Part shown: piece after piece, positions 733 through 38,166 of the stretch | Numbering within the stretch: position 1 is the stretch's first letter | Layout of the letters: each line of letters opens with the position of its first letter | Origin: Escherichia phage T7 | Sequence record: MZ375249.1 | Strand: one strand, 5' to 3' | Length of the DNA stretch: 38,166 nt | Made by a program: the position numbers and the translations under genes | The notes under the pieces: model-generated | The model's input: only the letters and a program-made list of their open reading frames with translations | The model's database searches: none | What the model was told of the DNA's origin: nothing

Positions 733-843
733 TGAAACGACAGTGAGTCACCACACTGAAAGGTGATGCGGTCTAACGAAACCTGACCTAAGACGCTCTT
801 TAACAATCTGGTAAATAGCTCTTGAGTGCATGACTAGCGGATA

Positions 844-873
844 ACTCAAGGGTATCGCAAGGTGCCCTTTATG
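844..873 (+). promoter_or_regulatory. RNase III processing hairpin R0.3
   Basis: ctcaagggtatcgcaaggtgccctttatg; member of a recurring ctcaagg..loop..gtgg.ctttatg hairpin family. Confidence 0.6.
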
Positions 874-906
874 ATATTCACTAATAACTGCACGAGGTAA
901 CACAAG

Positions 907-1260
907 ATGGCTATGTCTAACATGACTTACAACAACGTTTTCGACCACGCTTACGAAATGCTGAAAGAAAACATCCGTTATGATGACATCCGTGACACTG
1001 ATGACCTGCACGATGCTATTCACATGGCTGCCGATAATGCAGTTCCGCACTACTACGCTGACATCTTTAGCGTAATGGCAAGTGAGGGCATTGACCTTGA
1101 GTTCGAAGACTCTGGTCTGATGCCTGACACCAAGGACGTAATCCGCATCCTGCAAGCGCGTATCTATGAGCAATTAACGATTGACCTCTGGGAAGACGCA
1201 GAAGACTTGCTCAATGAATACTTGGAGGAAGTCGAGGAGTACGAGGAGGATGAAGAGTAA
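907..1260 (+). CDS. ocr: Gene 0.3, Ocr anti-restriction DNA-mimic protein (117 aa)
   Basis: ORF translation [10 protein letters not shown]...EEYEEDEE matches T7 Ocr; acidic C-terminus. Confidence 0.95.
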
Positions 1261-1391
1261 TGTCTACTACCAACGTGCAATACGGTCTGACCGCTCAAAC
1301 TGTACTTTTCTATAGCGACATGGGGCGGCGTGGCATAGACGAAAGGAAAAGGTTAAAGCCAAGAAACTCGCCGCACTTGAACAGGCACTAG
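1260..1391 (+). pseudogene. Remnant of genes 0.4-0.6: gene 0.4 start ([21 protein letters not shown]) fused to out-of-frame 3' sequence of gene 0.6; a separate frame still encodes the 0.6B C-terminal tail up to a TAA at 1415..1417
   Basis: 43-codon ORF overlapping the 0.3 stop; only 180 bp separate 0.3 and 0.7 here versus about 740 bp in reference T7. Confidence 0.7.
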
Positions 1392-1439
1392 CCAACACAC
1401 TGAACGCTATCTCATAACGAACATAAAGGACACAATGCA

Positions 1440-2519
1440 ATGAACATTACCGACATCATGAACGCTATCGACGCAATCAAAGCACTGCCAATCTGTGAAC
1501 TTGACAAGCGTCAAGGTATGCTTATCGACTTACTGGTCGAGATGGTCAACAGCGAGACGTGTGATGGCGAGCTAACCGAACTAAATCAGGCACTTGAGCA
1601 TCAAGATTGGTGGACTACCTTGAAGTGTCTCACGGCTGACGCAGGGTTCAAGATGCTCGGTAATGGTCACTTCTCGGCTGCTTATAGTCACCCGCTGCTA
1701 CCTAACAGAGTGATTAAGGTGGGCTTTAAGAAAGAGGATTCAGGCGCAGCCTATACCGCATTCTGCCGCATGTATCAGGGTCGTCCTGGTATCCCTAACG
1801 TCTACGATGTACAGCGCCACGCTGGATGCTATACGGTGGTACTTGACGCACTTAAGGATTGCGAGCGTTTCAACAATGATGCCCATTATAAATACGCTGA
1901 GATTGCAAGCGACATCATTGATTGCAATTCGGATGAGCATGATGAGTTAACTGGATGGGATGGTGAGTTTGTTGAAACTTGTAAACTAATCCGCAAGTTC
2001 TTTGAGGGCATCGCCTCATTCGACATGCATAGCGGGAACATCATGTTCTCAAATGGAGACGTACCATACATCACCGACCCGGTATCATTCTCGCAGAAGA
2101 AAGACGGTGGCGCATTCAGCATCGACCCTGAGGAACTCATCAAGGAAGTCGAGGAAGTCGCACGACAGAAAGAAATTGACCGCGCTAAGGCCCGTAAAGA
2201 ACGTCACGAGGGGCGCTTAGAGGCACGCAGATTCAAACGTCGCAACCGCAAGGCACGTAAAGCACACAAAGCTAAGCGCGAAAGAATGCTTGCTGCGTGG
2301 CGATGGGCTGAACGTCAAGAACGGCGTAACCATGAGGTAGCTGTAGATGTACTAGGAAGAACCAATAACGCTATGCTCTGGGTCAACATGTTCTCTGGGG
2401 ACTTTAAGGCGCTTGAGGAACGAATCGCGCTGCACTGGCGTAATGCTGACCGGATGGCTATCGCTAATGGTCTTACGCTCAACATTGATAAGCAACTTGA
2501 CGCAATGTTAATGGGCTGA
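1440..2519 (+). CDS. 0.7: Gene 0.7, serine/threonine protein kinase / host transcription shut-off (359 aa)
   Basis: Full-length ORF matching T7 gp0.7 in size and sequence. Confidence 0.95.
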
Positions 2520-2530
2520 TAGTCTTATCT

Positions 2531-2560
2531 TACAGGTCATCTGCGGGTGGCCTGAATAGG
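2531..2560 (+). promoter_or_regulatory. RNase III processing hairpin R1
   Basis: caggtcatctgcgggtggcctgaa hairpin between 0.7 and gene 1. Confidence 0.55.
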
Positions 2561-2589
2561 TACGATTTACTAACTGGAAGAGGCACTAA

Positions 2590-5241
2590 ATGAACACGAT
2601 TAACATCGCTAAGAACGACTTCTCTGACATCGAACTGGCTGCTATCCCGTTCAACACTCTGGCTGACCATTACGGTGAGCGTTTAGCTCGCGAACAGTTG
2701 GCCCTTGAGCATGAGTCTTACGAGATGGGTGAAGCACGCTTCCGCAAGATGTTTGAGCGTCAACTTAAAGCTGGTGAGGTTGCGGATAACGCTGCCGCCA
2801 AGCCTCTCATCACTACCCTACTCCCTAAGATGATTGCACGCATCAACGACTGGTTTGAGGAAGTGAAAGCTAAGCGCGGCAAGCGCCCGACAGCCTTCCA
2901 GTTCCTGCAAGAAATCAAGCCGGAAGCCGTAGCGTACATCACCATTAAGACCACTCTGGCTTGCCTAACCAGTGCTGACAATACAACCGTTCAGGCTGTA
3001 GCAAGCGCAATCGGTCGGGCCATTGAGGACGAGGCTCGCTTCGGTCGTATCCGTGACCTTGAAGCTAAGCACTTCAAGAAAAACGTTGAGGAACAACTCA
3101 ACAAGCGCGTAGGGCACGTCTACAAGAAAGCATTTATGCGAGTTGTCGAGGCTGACATGCTCTCTAAGGGTCTACTCGGTGGCGAGGCGTGGTCTTCGTG
3201 GCATAAGGAAGACTCTATTCATGTAGGAGTACGCTGCATCGAGATGCTCATTGAGTCAACCGGAATGGTTAGCTTACACCGCCAAAATGCTGGCGTAGTA
3301 GGTCAAGACTCTGAGACTATCGAACTCGCACCTGAATACGCTGAGGCTATCGCAACCCGTGCAGGTGCGCTGGCTGGCATCTCTCCGATGTTCCAACCTT
3401 GCGTAGTTCCTCCTAAGCCGTGGACTGGCATTACTGGTGGTGGCTATTGGGCTAACGGTCGTCGTCCTCTGGCGCTGGTGCGTACTCACAGTAAGAAAGC
3501 ACTGATGCGCTACGAAGACGTTTACATGCCTGAGGTGTACAAAGCGATTAACATTGCGCAAAACACCGCATGGAAAATCAACAAGAAAGTCCTAGCGGTC
3601 GCCAACGTAATCACCAAGTGGAAGCATTGTCCGGTCGAGGACATCCCTGCGATTGAGCGTGAAGAACTCCCGATGAAACCGGAAGACATCGACATGAATC
3701 CTGAGGCTCTCACCGCGTGGAAACGTGCTGCCGCTGCTGTGTACCGCAAGGACAAGGCTCGCAAGTCTCGCCGTATCAGCCTTGAGTTCATGCTTGAGCA
3801 AGCCAATAAGTTTGCTAACCATAAGGCCATCTGGTTCCCTTACAACATGGACTGGCGCGGTCGTGTTTACGCTGTGTCAATGTTCAACCCGCAAGGTAAC
3901 GATATGACCAAAGGACTGCTTACGCTGGCGAAAGGTAAACCAATCGGTAAGGAAGGTTACTACTGGCTGAAAATCCACGGTGCAAACTGTGCGGGTGTCG
4001 ATAAGGTTCCGTTCCCTGAGCGCATCAAGTTCATTGAGGAAAACCACGAGAACATCATGGCTTGCGCTAAGTCTCCACTGGAGAACACTTGGTGGGCTGA
4101 GCAAGATTCTCCGTTCTGCTTCCTTGCGTTCTGCTTTGAGTACGCTGGGGTACAGCACCACGGCCTGAGCTATAACTGCTCCCTTCCGCTGGCGTTTGAC
4201 GGGTCTTGCTCTGGCATCCAGCACTTCTCCGCGATGCTCCGAGATGAGGTAGGTGGTCGCGCGGTTAACTTGCTTCCTAGTGAAACCGTTCAGGACATCT
4301 ACGGGATTGTTGCTAAGAAAGTCAACGAGATTCTACAAGCAGACGCAATCAATGGGACCGATAACGAAGTAGTTACCGTGACCGATGAGAACACTGGTGA
4401 AATCTCTGAGAAAGTCAAGCTGGGCACTAAGGCACTGGCTGGTCAATGGCTGGCTTACGGTGTTACTCGCAGTGTGACTAAGCGTTCAGTCATGACGCTG
4501 GCTTACGGGTCCAAAGAGTTCGGCTTCCGTCAACAAGTGCTGGAAGATACCATTCAGCCAGCTATTGATTCCGGCAAGGGTCTGATGTTCACTCAGCCGA
4601 ATCAGGCTGCTGGATACATGGCTAAGCTGATTTGGGAATCTGTGAGCGTGACGGTGGTAGCTGCGGTTGAAGCAATGAACTGGCTTAAGTCTGCTGCTAA
4701 GCTGCTGGCTGCTGAGGTCAAAGATAAGAAGACTGGAGAGATTCTTCGCAAGCGTTGCGCTGTGCATTGGGTAACTCCTGATGGTTTCCCTGTGTGGCAG
4801 GAATACAAGAAGCCTATTCAGACGCGCTTGAACCTGATGTTCCTCGGTCAGTTCCGCTTACAGCCTACCATTAACACCAACAAAGATAGCGAGATTGATG
4901 CACACAAACAGGAGTCTGGTATCGCTCCTAACTTTGTACACAGCCAAGACGGTAGCCACCTTCGTAAGACTGTAGTGTGGGCACACGAGAAGTACGGAAT
5001 CGAATCTTTTGCACTGATTCACGACTCCTTCGGTACCATTCCGGCTGACGCTGCGAACCTGTTCAAAGCAGTGCGCGAAACTATGGTTGACACATATGAG
5101 TCTTGTGATGTACTGGCTGATTTCTACGACCAGTTCGCTGACCAGTTGCACGAGTCTCAATTGGACAAAATGCCAGCACTTCCGGCTAAAGGTAACTTGA
5201 ACCTCCGTGACATCTTAGAGTCGGACTTCGCGTTCGCGTAA
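2590..5241 (+). CDS. 1: Gene 1, T7 RNA polymerase (883 aa)
   Basis: MNTINIAKNDFSDIELAAIPFNTLADHYGERLAREQLALEHESYEMGEARF... ending DILESDFAFA; canonical T7 RNAP. Confidence 0.99.
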   Translation: MNTINIAKNDFSDIELAAIPFNTLADHYGERLAREQLALEHESYEMGEARFRKMFERQLKAGEVADNAAAKPLITTLLPKMIARINDWFEEVKAKRGKRPTAFQFLQEIKPEAVAYITIKTTLACLTSADNTTVQAVASAIGRAIEDEARFGRIRDLEAKHFKKNVEEQLNKRVGHVYKKAFMRVVEADMLSKGLLGGEAWSSWHKEDSIHVGVRCIEMLIESTGMVSLHRQNAGVVGQDSETIELAPEYAEAIATRAGALAGISPMFQPCVVPPKPWTGITGGGYWANGRRPLALVRTHSKKALMRYEDVYMPEVYKAINIAQNTAWKINKKVLAVANVITKWKHCPVEDIPAIEREELPMKPEDIDMNPEALTAWKRAAAAVYRKDKARKSRRISLEFMLEQANKFANHKAIWFPYNMDWRGRVYAVSMFNPQGNDMTKGLLTLAKGKPIGKEGYYWLKIHGANCAGVDKVPFPERIKFIEENHENIMACAKSPLENTWWAEQDSPFCFLAFCFEYAGVQHHGLSYNCSLPLAFDGSCSGIQHFSAMLRDEVGGRAVNLLPSETVQDIYGIVAKKVNEILQADAINGTDNEVVTVTDENTGEISEKVKLGTKALAGQWLAYGVTRSVTKRSVMTLAYGSKEFGFRQQVLEDTIQPAIDSGKGLMFTQPNQAAGYMAKLIWESVSVTVVAAVEAMNWLKSAAKLLAAEVKDKKTGEILRKRCAVHWVTPDGFPVWQEYKKPIQTRLNLMFLGQFRLQPTINTNKDSEIDAHKQESGIAPNFVHSQDGSHLRKTVVWAHEKYGIESFALIHDSFGTIPADAANLFKAVRETMVDTYESCDVLADFYDQFADQLHESQLDKMPALPAKGNLNLRDILESDFAFA

Positions 5242-10424: not shown

Positions 10425-12294
<1,870 letters not shown>

Positions 12295-32000: not shown

Positions 32001-32986
32001 GAACCACTAACTACCTTCTGGATGCTGCGCGTCAAGGTATGCTTGGGGATGTTATTAGTGCCACCCTAACAGGTAAGACTACCCGCTGGGAGAAAGAAGG
32101 CTTCCTTCGTGGTGCCTCCGTAACTCCTGAGCAGATGGCTGGCATCAAGTCTCTCATCAAGGAACATATGGTACGCGGTGAGGACGGGAAGTTTACCGTT
32201 AAGGACAAGCAAGCGTTCTCTATGGACCCACGGGCTATGGACTTATGGAGACTGGCTGACAAGGTAGCTGATGAGGCAATGCTGCGTCCACATAAGGTGT
32301 CCTTACAGGATTCCCATGCGTTCGGAGCACTAGGTAAGATGGTTATGCAGTTTAAGTCTTTCACTATCAAGTCCCTTAACTCTAAGTTCCTGCGAACCTT
32401 CTATGATGGATACAAGAACAACCGAGCGATTGACGCTGCGCTGAGCATCATCACCTCTATGGGTCTCGCTGGTGGTTTCTATGCTATGGCTGCACACGTC
32501 AGAGCATACGCTCTGCCTAAGGAGAAACGTAAGGAGTACTTGGAGCGTGCACTGGACCCAACCATGATTGCCCACGCTGCGTTATCTCGTAGTTCTCAAT
32601 TGGGTGTTCCTTTGGCTATGGTTGACCTAGTTGGTGGTGTTTTAGGGTTCGAGTCCTCCAAGATGGCTCGCTCTACGATTCTACCTAAGGACACCGTGAA
32701 GGAACGTGACCCAAACAAACCGTACACCTCTAGAGAGGTAATGGGCGCTATGGGTTCAAACCTTCTGGAACAGATGCCTTCGGCTGGCTTTGTGGCTAAC
32801 GTAGGGGCTACCTTAATGAATGCTGCTGGCGTGGTCAACTCACCTAATAAAGCAACCGAGCAGGACTTCATGACTGGTCTTATGAACTCCACAAAAGAGT
32901 TAGTACCGAACGACCCATTGACTCAACAGCTTGTGTTGAAGATTTATGAGGCGAACGGTGTTAACTTGAGGGAGCGTAGGAAATAA
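29030..32986 (+). CDS. 16: Gene 16, internal core protein with N-terminal lytic transglycosylase domain (1318 aa)
   Basis: MDKYDKNVPSDYDGLFQKAADANGVSYDLLRKVAWTESRFVPTAKSKTGPLGMMQFT (SLT-type motif). Confidence 0.97.
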   Translation: MDKYDKNVPSDYDGLFQKAADANGVSYDLLRKVAWTESRFVPTAKSKTGPLGMMQFTKATAKALGLRVTDGPDDDRLNPELAINAAAKQLAGLVGKFDGDELKAALAYNQGEGRLGNPQLEAYSKGDFASISEEGRNYMRNLLDVAKSPMAGQLETFGGITPKGKGIPAEVGLAGIGHKQKVTQELPESTSFDVKGIEQEATAKPFAKDFWETHGETLDEYNSRSTFFGFKNAAEAELSNSVAGMAFRAGRLDNGFDVFKDTITPTRWNSHIWTPEELEKIRTEVKNPAYINVVTGGSPENLDDLIKLANENFENDSRAAEAGLGAKLSAGIIGAGVDPLSYVPMVGVTGKGFKLINKALVVGAESAALNVASEGLRTSVAGGDADYAGAALGGFVFGAGMSAISDAVAAGLKRSKPEAEFDNEFIGPMMRLEARETARNANSADLSRMNTENMKFEGEHNGVPYEDLPTERGAVVLHDGSVLSASNPINPKTLKEFSEVDPEKAARGIKLAGFTEIGLKTLGSDDADIRRVAIDLVRSPTGMQSGASGKFGATASDIHERLHGTDQRTYNDLYKAMSDAMKDPEFSTGGAKMSREETRYTIYRRAALAIERPELQKALTPSERIVMDIIKRHFDTKRELMENPAIFGNTKAVSIFPESRHKGTYVPHVYDRHAKALMIQRYGAEGLQEGIARSWMNSYVSRPEVKARVDEMLKELHGVKEVTPEMVEKYAMDKAYGISHSDQFTNSSIIEENIEGLVGIENNSFLEARNLFDSDLSITMPDGQQFSVNDLRDFDMFRIMPAYDRRVNSDIAIMGSTGKTTKELKDEILALKAKAEGDGKKTGEVHALMDTVKILTGRARRNQDTVWETSLRAINDLGFFAKNAYMGAQNITEIAGMIVTGNVRALGHGIPILRDTLYKSKPVSAKELKELHASLFGKEVDQLIRPKRADIVQRLREATDTGPAVANIVGTLKYSTQELAARSPWTKLLNGTTNYLLDAARQGMLGDVISATLTGKTTRWEKEGFLRGASVTPEQMAGIKSLIKEHMVRGEDGKFTVKDKQAFSMDPRAMDLWRLADKVADEAMLRPHKVSLQDSHAFGALGKMVMQFKSFTIKSLNSKFLRTFYDGYKNNRAIDAALSIITSMGLAGGFYAMAAHVRAYALPKEKRKEYLERALDPTMIAHAALSRSSQLGVPLAMVDLVGGVLGFESSKMARSTILPKDTVKERDPNKPYTSREVMGAMGSNLLEQMPSAGFVANVGATLMNAAGVVNSPNKATEQDFMTGLMNSTKELVPNDPLTQQLVLKIYEANGVNLRERRK

Positions 32987-33058: not shown

Positions 33059-34720
33059 ATGGCTAACGTAATTAAAACCGTTTTGACTTACCAGTTAGAT
33101 GGCTCCAATCGTGATTTTAATATCCCGTTTGAGTATCTAGCCCGTAAGTTCGTAGTGGTAACTCTTATTGGTGTAGACCGAAAGGTCCTTACGATTAATA
33201 CAGACTATCGCTTTGCTACACGTACTACTATCTCTCTGACAAAGGCTTGGGGTCCAGCCGATGGCTACACGACCATCGAGTTACGTCGAGTAACCTCCAC
33301 TACCGACCGATTGGTTGACTTTACGGATGGTTCAATCCTCCGCGCGTATGACCTTAACGTCGCTCAGATTCAAACGATGCACGTAGCGGAAGAGGCCCGT
33401 GACCTCACTACGGATACTATCGGTGTCAATAACGATGGTCACTTGGATGCTCGTGGTCGTCGAATTGTGAACCTAGCGAACGCCGTGGATGACCGCGATG
33501 CTGTTCCGTTTGGTCAACTAAAGACCATGAACCAGAACTCATGGCAAGCACGTAATGAAGCCTTACAGTTCCGTAATGAGGCTGAGACTTTCAGAAACCA
33601 AGCGGAGGGCTTTAAGAACGAGTCCAGTACCAACGCTACGAACACAAAGCAGTGGCGCGATGAGACCAAGGGTTTCCGAGACGAAGCCAAGCGGTTCGAG
33701 AATACGGCTGGTCAATACGCTACATCTGCTGGGAACTCTGCTTCCGCTGCGCATCAATCTGAGGTAAACGCTGAGAACTCTGCCACAGCATCCGCTAACT
33801 CTGCTCATTTGGCAGAACAGCAAGCAGACCGTGCGGAACGTGAGGCAGACAAGCTGGAAAATTACAATGGATTGGCTGGTGCAATTGATAAGGTAGATGG
33901 AACCAATGTGTACTGGAAAGGAAATATTCACGCTAACGGGCGCCTTTACATGACCACAAACGGTTTTGACTGTGGCCAGTATCAACAGTTCTTTGGTGGT
34001 GTCACTAATCGTTACTCTGTCATGGAGTGGGGAGATGAGAACGGATGGCTGATGTATGTTCAACGTAGAGAGTGGACAACAGCGATAGGCGGTAACATCC
34101 AGTTAGTAGTAAACGGACAGATCATCACCCAAGGTGGAGCCATGACCGGTCAGCTAAAATTGCAGAATGGGCATGTTCTTCAATTAGAGTCCGCATCCGA
34201 CAAGGCGCACTATATTCTATCTAAAGATGGTAACAGGAATAACTGGTACATTGGTAGAGGGTCAGATAACAACAATGACTGTACCTTCCACTCCTATGTA
34301 CATGGTACGACCTTAACACTCAAGCAGGACTATGCAGTAGTTAACAAACACTTCCACGTAGGTCAGGCCGTTGTGGCCACTGATGGTAATATTCAAGGTA
34401 CTAAGTGGGGAGGTAAATGGCTGGATGCTTACCTACGTGACAGCTTCGTTGCGAAGTCCAAGGCGTGGACTCAGGTGTGGTCTGGTAGTGCTGGCGGTGG
34501 GGTAAGTGTGACTGTTTCACAGGATCTCCGCTTCCGCAATATCTGGATTAAGTGTGCCAACAACTCTTGGAACTTCTTCCGTACTGGCCCCGATGGAATC
34601 TACTTCATAGCCTCTGATGGTGGATGGTTACGATTCCAAATACACTCCAACGGTCTCGGATTCAAGAATATTGCAGACAGTCGTTCAGTACCTAATGCAA
34701 TCATGGTGGAGAACGAGTAA
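33059..34720 (+). CDS. 17: Gene 17, tail fiber protein (553 aa)
   Basis: MANVIKTVLTYQLDGSNRDFNIPFEYLARKFVVVTLIGVDR...; coiled-coil QARNEALQFRNEAETFRNQAEGFKNES. Confidence 0.98.
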   Translation: MANVIKTVLTYQLDGSNRDFNIPFEYLARKFVVVTLIGVDRKVLTINTDYRFATRTTISLTKAWGPADGYTTIELRRVTSTTDRLVDFTDGSILRAYDLNVAQIQTMHVAEEARDLTTDTIGVNNDGHLDARGRRIVNLANAVDDRDAVPFGQLKTMNQNSWQARNEALQFRNEAETFRNQAEGFKNESSTNATNTKQWRDETKGFRDEAKRFENTAGQYATSAGNSASAAHQSEVNAENSATASANSAHLAEQQADRAEREADKLENYNGLAGAIDKVDGTNVYWKGNIHANGRLYMTTNGFDCGQYQQFFGGVTNRYSVMEWGDENGWLMYVQRREWTTAIGGNIQLVVNGQIITQGGAMTGQLKLQNGHVLQLESASDKAHYILSKDGNRNNWYIGRGSDNNNDCTFHSYVHGTTLTLKQDYAVVNKHFHVGQAVVATDGNIQGTKWGGKWLDAYLRDSFVAKSKAWTQVWSGSAGGGVSVTVSQDLRFRNIWIKCANNSWNFFRTGPDGIYFIASDGGWLRFQIHSNGLGFKNIADSRSVPNAIMVENE

Positions 34721-37824: not shown

Positions 37825-37872
37825 ATGTTCCGCTTATTGTTGAACCTACTGCGGCATAGAGTCAAGTCCTAA
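37825..37872 (+). pseudogene. 19.5: Gene 19.5 remnant (15 codons, MFRLLLNLLRHRVKS, then stop)
   Basis: Start matches T7 19.5 (MFRLLLNLLRH) but the ORF ends after 15 codons; about 188 bp missing between phiOR and the right terminal repeat versus reference. Confidence 0.7.
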
Positions 37873-38024: not shown

Positions 38025-38166
38025 TCTCACAGTGTACGGACCTAAAGTTCCCCCATAGGGTGTACCTAAAGCCCAGCCAATCACCTAAAGTCAACCTTCG
38101 GTTGACCTTGAGGGTTCCCTAAGGGTTTGTCTTTGGGTGTTACCTTGAGTGTCTCTCTGTGTCCCT
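38025..38166. repeat. Right direct terminal repeat, identical to 1..142
   Basis: Exact 142-bp match to the window start. Confidence 0.95.

Follow-up and report, generated by a model that had tools for sequence, protein, structure and literature searches.

A very probably unplanned deletion of genes 0.4 to 0.6 at an imperfect direct repeat in a genome-reduced clone of phage T7

Studier, Rosenberg, Simon and Dunn reportedly described, in 1979, deletion mutants of the T7 early region that had formed at short direct repeats, and Kong and Masker are said to have found in 1994 that breaks stimulate deletion between repeats in T7. The classical early-region deletions are viable losses of class I genes lying between 0.3 and 1, and their endpoints fall at a short direct repeat of which one copy is kept. 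The deletion analysed here resembles them in both respects; unlike them, its repeat is imperfect (9/12 positions identical), the exact identity at its crossover is 1 nt, and the break behind it was presumably made by Cas9.

The closest described system otherwise is the series of T7 clones reduced in genome size with CRISPR/Cas9 (CiPGr; Yuan, Shi, Jiang and Ma 2022, NAR 50:13183, PMC9825161; GenBank MZ375233-MZ375294 and OL964739-41). In that study T7 was passaged 300 times on E. coli MG1655 with Cas9 and a plasmid library, each plasmid combining a spacer with a 50+50-nt template for deleting one gene or 100 bp, and the library containing up to eight spacers across each targeted gene (PMC9825161). 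Loss of “large fragments (gp0.3-0.6, gp4.3-4.7 and gp19.5)” is described by the authors as undesigned and probably the result of CRISPR escape (PMC9825161), and they attribute the retention of ocr to the type I restriction system of the K-12 host (PMC9825161).

We assign the window (the whole 38,166-nt stretch of DNA that was analysed) to this series as a sibling clone. The evidence that connects the GenBank series with the paper is strong but indirect and consists of clone names, which give transfer number and large or small plaque, the design reported in the paper, and the deletion pattern. The 100 nt spanning the first deletion junction recur without a single difference in 31 GenBank records, every one titled “Mutant Escherichia phage T7 clone T7_nnL/S” (MZ3752xx), and among 50,697 phage records this junction sequence is absent outside those clones. 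All six deletion junctions of the window, including that at 0.4-0.6, are common to T7_90S, T7_130S and T7_150S; these three clones match the window at 99.93-99.96% identity over its full length and differ from it by 12-25 substitutions or indels, and none of the collection's records is an exact match to it. The loss of genes 0.4-0.6 has already been published and the sequence family deposited, so the deletion itself is not new. What is only modestly new is the anatomy of its junction, together with a reciprocal allele, and an error in the reference sequence affecting the tail of gene 0.6B. In the main text of PMC9825161 there is no account of the junction, of the repeat or of the reciprocal pair of alleles, and the terms “microhomology” and “NHEJ” are absent from it; a literature search combining T7, Cas9, escape and microhomology found nothing relevant. 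Although the fragment label used in the paper is “gp0.3-0.6” (PMC9825161), gp0.3 is intact in the window.

Aligned to V01146, the whole window is colinear, its identity being broken by six gaps, of which the 0.4-0.6 gap comes first (Table 1). Identity extends on the left up to window 1323 (T7 1341) and on the right from window 1323 (T7 1904), so that the ambiguity at the junction amounts to 1 nt (G). Missing relative to V01146 is T7 1342-1904, 563 bp; relative to modern T7 it is 1342-1905, 564 bp, because an extra A at position 1896 falls within the lost segment. A preceding sequence-only reading, which had proposed a deletion of about 563 bp with its junction near 1321-1326 and had named alignment to a reference as the check, is borne out on size and position, with identity to V01146 flanking the gap on both sides. 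The left end of the deletion lies in codon 22 of gene 0.4 and the right end within the ORF in the 0.6B frame, four annotated genes being crossed. The removal of genes 0.4, 0.5 and 0.6, also part of that reading, holds for the whole window: neither a second copy of the deleted segment nor its proteins were found in it (blastn at word size 7, tblastn), and the sole blastn matches of the segment are short ones between its RNase III hairpin and other T7 RNase III sites.

Table 1. Features of the 0.3-0.7 locus and programmed-looking deletions elsewhere in the window (window coordinates; a solidus marks a junction between two adjacent bases)
Feature	Position	Strand	Basis or remark
Gene 0.3 (ocr), intact	907..1260	+	117-aa ORF; protein identical to V01146 gp0.3
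Gene 0.4 remnant: codons 1-21 and first base of codon 22	1260..1323	+	Equals T7 1278-1341
Chimeric 43-codon ORF with TAG stop: gp0.4(1-21) and 22 out-of-frame residues	1260..1391	+	
Deletion junction	1323..1324	.	Base-by-base extension against V01146; same in 31 GenBank clones (MZ3752xx)
Surviving right-hand repeat copy, GGGCGGCGTGGC	1323..1334 (T7 1904-1915, V01146)	.	In-register comparison
Remnant of 0.6B-frame ORF, last 30 codons and TAA	1325..1417	+	tblastn, parental ORF4 residues 43-72, 100% identity
Gene 0.7 (protein kinase / host shut-off), intact	1440..2519	+	359-aa ORF; protein identical to V01146 gp0.7
Gene 1.4 deletion, 156 bp, exactly ATG to TAA	7026/7027		Looks programmed
Gene 3.8 deletion, 292 bp, within its CDS	10516/10517		Looks programmed
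Gene 4.3 deletion, 198 bp, starts at ATG	12323/12324		Looks programmed
Gene 5.3 deletion, 338 bp, starts at ATG	15255/15256		Looks programmed

One way to account for the gap is that the DNA comes from a T7 relative in the wild that has always lacked these genes, or that the gap is an artefact of assembly. The 0.4-0.7 interval is indeed variable among T7-like phages, and many relatives match only part of it. Against this, both flanks are T7 up to the junction, remnants of gene 0.4 and of the 0.6B-frame ORF persist, the junction is present in 31 separately sequenced clones, and the genome also carries programmed deletions; natural polymorphism or assembly artefact is effectively refuted.

Both genes bordering the gap were expected to have been kept, and both proteins are identical to their V01146 counterparts. 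The spacing of 180 bp given earlier between the ocr stop and the 0.7 start is right as the length of 1260-1439 (180 nt) and one too many as a strict gap, which from the last base of the ocr stop to the 0.7 ATG is 179 nt, A1260 being common to the TAA of ocr and the ATG of gene 0.4 in the overlap TAATG. An ORF of 43 codons that begins with the gene 0.4 N-terminus and ends in TAG had likewise been read from the letters, and it is present as described, carrying gp0.4 residues 1-21. The source of its 22-residue tail is the 3' end of the 0.6B-frame ORF, read in another frame; the sibling GenBank records contain no annotation of this chimeric ORF. The remnant in the 0.6B frame itself is recovered by tblastn as ORF4 residues 43-72 at window 1325-1414, read in frame 1322+, and has no in-frame start codon. 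Upstream of gene 0.7, an AAAGGA motif resembling a Shine-Dalgarno sequence can be read at 1425-1430 and presumably serves gene 0.7 itself.

Which of the two frames carries the true 0.6B C-terminus depends on the reference. The sequence-only reading had placed it in the frame other than that of the chimeric ORF; this agrees with the ending found in modern T7, which recurs as a conserved ending in phages C5, NC-A and Yanou, and disagrees with the annotation of V01146/NC_001604, in which “possible gene 0.6B” has the ending ...GRRGIDERKRLKPRNSPHLNRH, the very tail that the chimeric ORF carries. The annotated tail exists because the 1983 sequence is missing one A at 1896, which T7_10L (MZ375233), AY264774 and other modern T7 sequences have; with the A in place, the 0.6B-frame ORF acquires a different set of last residues (~25). 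The modern ending is kept in other phages, and the frame chosen in the first reading is therefore the biologically conserved one. Judged by predicted reading frames, the chimeric fusion is out of frame relative to the conserved 0.6B-frame ORF. Residues 20-43 of the chimeric ORF match phrog_8393 at positions 88-111, whereas the modern ORF matches up to position 104 only. We explain the former match by survival of the V01146 0.6B tail in the profile: phrog_8393 appears to carry a tail derived from V01146.

The same reading had advised looking for short direct repeats at the junction in order to judge whether the deletion was spontaneous or designed. An imperfect 12-nt repeat is present there. 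Its left-hand copy, GTGCGCTGTGGC (T7 1341-1352, V01146 numbering), is lost from the window, and its right-hand copy survives; the two are identical at 9/12 positions and share an exact GTGGC core at the 3' end. When deletion registers are drawn at random from the genome, only 0.3-0.5% have a repeat this good at the junction. Within the 0.4-0.6 interval, 86 repeat pairs are of equal quality and 11 are better, so that the repeat alone does not explain why this deletion won; the survivors were presumably chosen by selection, through the protospacers removed and what must stay, and not by repeat quality alone.

Comparison with sibling clones reveals three different alleles in this region. Allele A is the version in the window, with the right repeat copy kept and exact identity at the crossover of only 1 nt; for this reason the argument from the repeat draws its force from the 9/12 match and from the existence of a reciprocal allele. 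That reciprocal, allele B, occurs in sibling records (n = 10; e.g. T7_150L, T7_5t1) in the same register, with the left repeat copy kept, and differs from the window solely where the two repeat copies mismatch, at three positions. Its ORF, likewise of 43 codons, contains ...SDMVRCGIDE..., and the crossover that formed this allele falls inside the exact GTGGC. The OL96473x-74x records have the reciprocal form of the junction, and the form seen in the window occurs in MZ3752xx only. Allele C (T7_50S, T7_100L.2 and others) is a 677-bp deletion at a CTGA microhomology, by which 0.4-0.6 are likewise lost and ocr and 0.7 spared; in MZ375242 (T7_50S) the CTGA lies at 1305-1308 and the gap from ocr to 0.7 is only 66 nt. 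T7_10L still has a wild-type 0.4-0.6 region and T7_30L has lost it, allele A being present by transfer 30. The window and its siblings thus display the marks of a repeat-mediated deletion: endpoints on a direct repeat, one copy left, and a reciprocal product in the same register.

We consider it highly probable that the window is a genome-reduced T7 sibling whose 0.4-0.6 deletion was unplanned and arose via the imperfect 12-nt repeat, likely in the repair of a Cas9 break. The undesigned origin is supported by endpoints inside ORFs, by the imperfect repeat, by the reciprocal and independent alleles, and by the contrast with the programmed deletions. A designed deletion, in which a homology template or successive programmed edits took out genes 0.4 to 0.6, has some initial appeal, as the same genome contains four clean deletions that look programmed, in a system using 50-nt arms, and genes 0.4-0.6 are non-essential targets of the library. 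It is nonetheless very improbable. The authors themselves state that large-fragment loss in the early region was undesigned (PMC9825161); the endpoints fall in mid-codon 22 of gene 0.4 and within the 0.6B-frame ORF, away from gene boundaries; and a “cassette-gene” or “cassette-100” plasmid removes one gene or 100 bp, as opposed to the 564 bp over four annotated genes lost here. Nor could a single synthetic template yield two versions of the junction in the same register. On the choice between spontaneous and designed, the evidence points to an event that was spontaneous, was guided by the repeat and came under selection by Cas9.

Four of the other deletions in the genome provide the contrast. 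At 1.4, 3.8, 4.3 and 5.3, identity at the junction is 0-3 nt. The fifth, of 189 bp, takes out gene 19.5 between two identical 9-nt direct repeats, ATAGAGTCA (window 37856-37864), and is a second undesigned, repeat-mediated deletion.

Several further differences were recorded across the window. After the deletion in gene 3.8, translation from the start codon of 3.8 would run in frame into gene 4A (window 10488-12236), giving a predicted 582-aa primase/helicase with a 16-residue N-terminal extension, which is annotated as such in sibling records; the usual start codons of 4A and 4B have been retained. In the terminal repeat, 18 bp are missing from both copies relative to T7 (after window 98; near 38123-38127). 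The same loss is found among clones of each allele type (A, B and C), and it was therefore either recombined among lineages or recurrent. A404G (window 387) lies one base before the annotated start of the phiOL promoter (405) and is present in every examined CiPGr clone except T7_10L. At the protein level, differences from V01146 comprise Q184R in T7 RNA polymerase (window 3140), K404T in DNA polymerase (window 14336), T13P and R25S in gp7.3 (window 18006 and 18042), G809S, K1158R and A1193V in gp16 (gene 16 at 29030-32986) and K214E in the tail fibre gp17 (gene 17 at 33059-34720); some of these may be differences between laboratory strains and not new mutations.

By the most likely route, the 0.4-0.6 deletion would have begun with a Cas9 double-strand break in gene 0.4, 0.5 or 0.6. 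The broken ends would then have been resected and the two imperfect copies of the 12-nt repeat annealed, after which trimming of the flaps and ligation would have given the deletion product by illegitimate recombination. Such a product would have been retained because the targeted protospacers were removed and the lost genes were dispensable in culture. An alternative requires no cut at all: a spontaneous mutant, formed by slippage or recombination at the repeat, could have pre-existed in the population and later been enriched, either because Cas9 selected against the wild type or because a shorter genome conferred an advantage in growth. Deletion at short direct repeats in T7 has long been known (Studier et al. 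1979, Kong and Masker 1994, both as cited in PMC5630979), the anatomy of the junction is what slippage would be expected to leave, and the region holds three different alleles. The junction is, on the other hand, confined to the clones of one study among 50,697 phage records, with no record from outside CiPGr carrying it, double-strand breaks are reported to stimulate repeat-mediated deletion in T7 (Kong and Masker 1994, cited in PMC5630979), and this population was under continuous Cas9 cutting. Break-induced annealing and pre-existing slippage are inseparable by sequence alone; with the confinement to one series and the constant cutting taken into account, we regard a pre-existing mutant as unlikely and favour repair of a Cas9 break.

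Repair by annealing could also account for the pair of reciprocal alleles. Once paired, the two repeat copies would differ at three positions and form a mismatched heteroduplex, whose two strands, by replication or patch repair, could give rise to allele A with the right copy and allele B with the left copy. We suggest, tentatively and as somewhat less than an even chance, that A and B are two sister products of one break-repair intermediate, a heteroduplex whose three mismatches were replicated uncorrected. Among the sequenced clones, allele A appears from transfer 30 and allele B only from transfer 150, so that the two need not share one origin: the pair may also have come from separate events at this repeat or from conversion at a later stage. 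Left-end markers, considered as a test for a common background of A and B, proved mosaic across alleles A, B and C and uninformative on lineage.

The deletion has probable consequences for several host-directed functions. The first reading's description of gp0.4 as an FtsZ inhibitor agrees with established literature, according to which gp0.4 blocks the assembly of FtsZ (Kiro et al. 2013, cited in PMC4944311); in a proposed model its central helix-turn-helix inserts into a cleft of FtsZ (PMC4944311). In the window, gp0.4 is cut to 21 of its 51 residues. The chimeric ORF matches phrog_7202 at positions 2-25 of 50 only, with 38 bits as against 113.6 bits for the wild type, and at 43 aa it falls outside the full-length gp0.4 family, whose members have ~50 aa with a central helix-turn-helix. 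With 21 residues left and half of the profile matched, gp0.4 function is likely lost, in support of the earlier suggestion that this host interaction had disappeared. A 43-aa fusion peptide is probably still translated from the 0.4 ribosome site, because the 0.4 start codon and the GGAGGA upstream of it are both intact, and is presumably inert. Also gone, and beyond what the sequence-only reading had noticed, are gp0.5 and gp0.6A/B, a promoter and an RNase III site; the five further deletions and the identity of the genome as a published laboratory mutant are likewise additions to it. gp0.6 is reported to target or inhibit MreB (Molshanski-Mor et al. 2014, cited in PMC6965359). No Pfam family was found for gp0.4, gp0.5 or gp0.6.

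At the RNA level, the lost segment included promoter B, a minor promoter for E. coli polymerase (T7 1514), and a stable hairpin at T7 1428-1479 (z = -2.85), the sequence of which matches windows overlapping or adjoining other T7 RNase III sites. Because of these matches we take the hairpin to be R0.5, the RNase III site between 0.4 and 0.5. The site was assessed by folding and by paralogue matches; an Rfam scan of T7 800-3300 returned no match to a curated RNase III-site family. R0.5 is absent from the window, and its paralogous RNase III sites elsewhere in the window are kept. No new promoter or terminator was created by the junction in the fused region scanned (1100-1600), and 1255-1460 shows no significant RNA structure (z = 0.28). 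With R0.5 and promoter B gone and nothing new in the fused region, the 0.3 and 0.7 messages should remain joined as one RNA.

For readers of the deposited record, the gene content of the window should not be taken as natural variation, since this is an engineered, published T7 mutant, and the 43-codon ORF is no gene, being an accidental by-product of the deletion. The missing A in V01146 has given “gene 0.6B” a wrong C-terminal tail, and the error appears to have spread to a PHROG profile. Beyond annotation, the deletion is of little importance. If alleles A and B are indeed sister products, the clone series would record single-strand annealing on 9/12 identity during escape of T7 from Cas9, and the “1-nt microhomology” junction of the window would be the hidden partner of a 5-nt one. 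A junction nearly free of homology (1 nt) turned out, once siblings were compared, to be repeat-based and to have a reciprocal allele, which calls for caution in classing break-repair junctions as end-joining or annealing.
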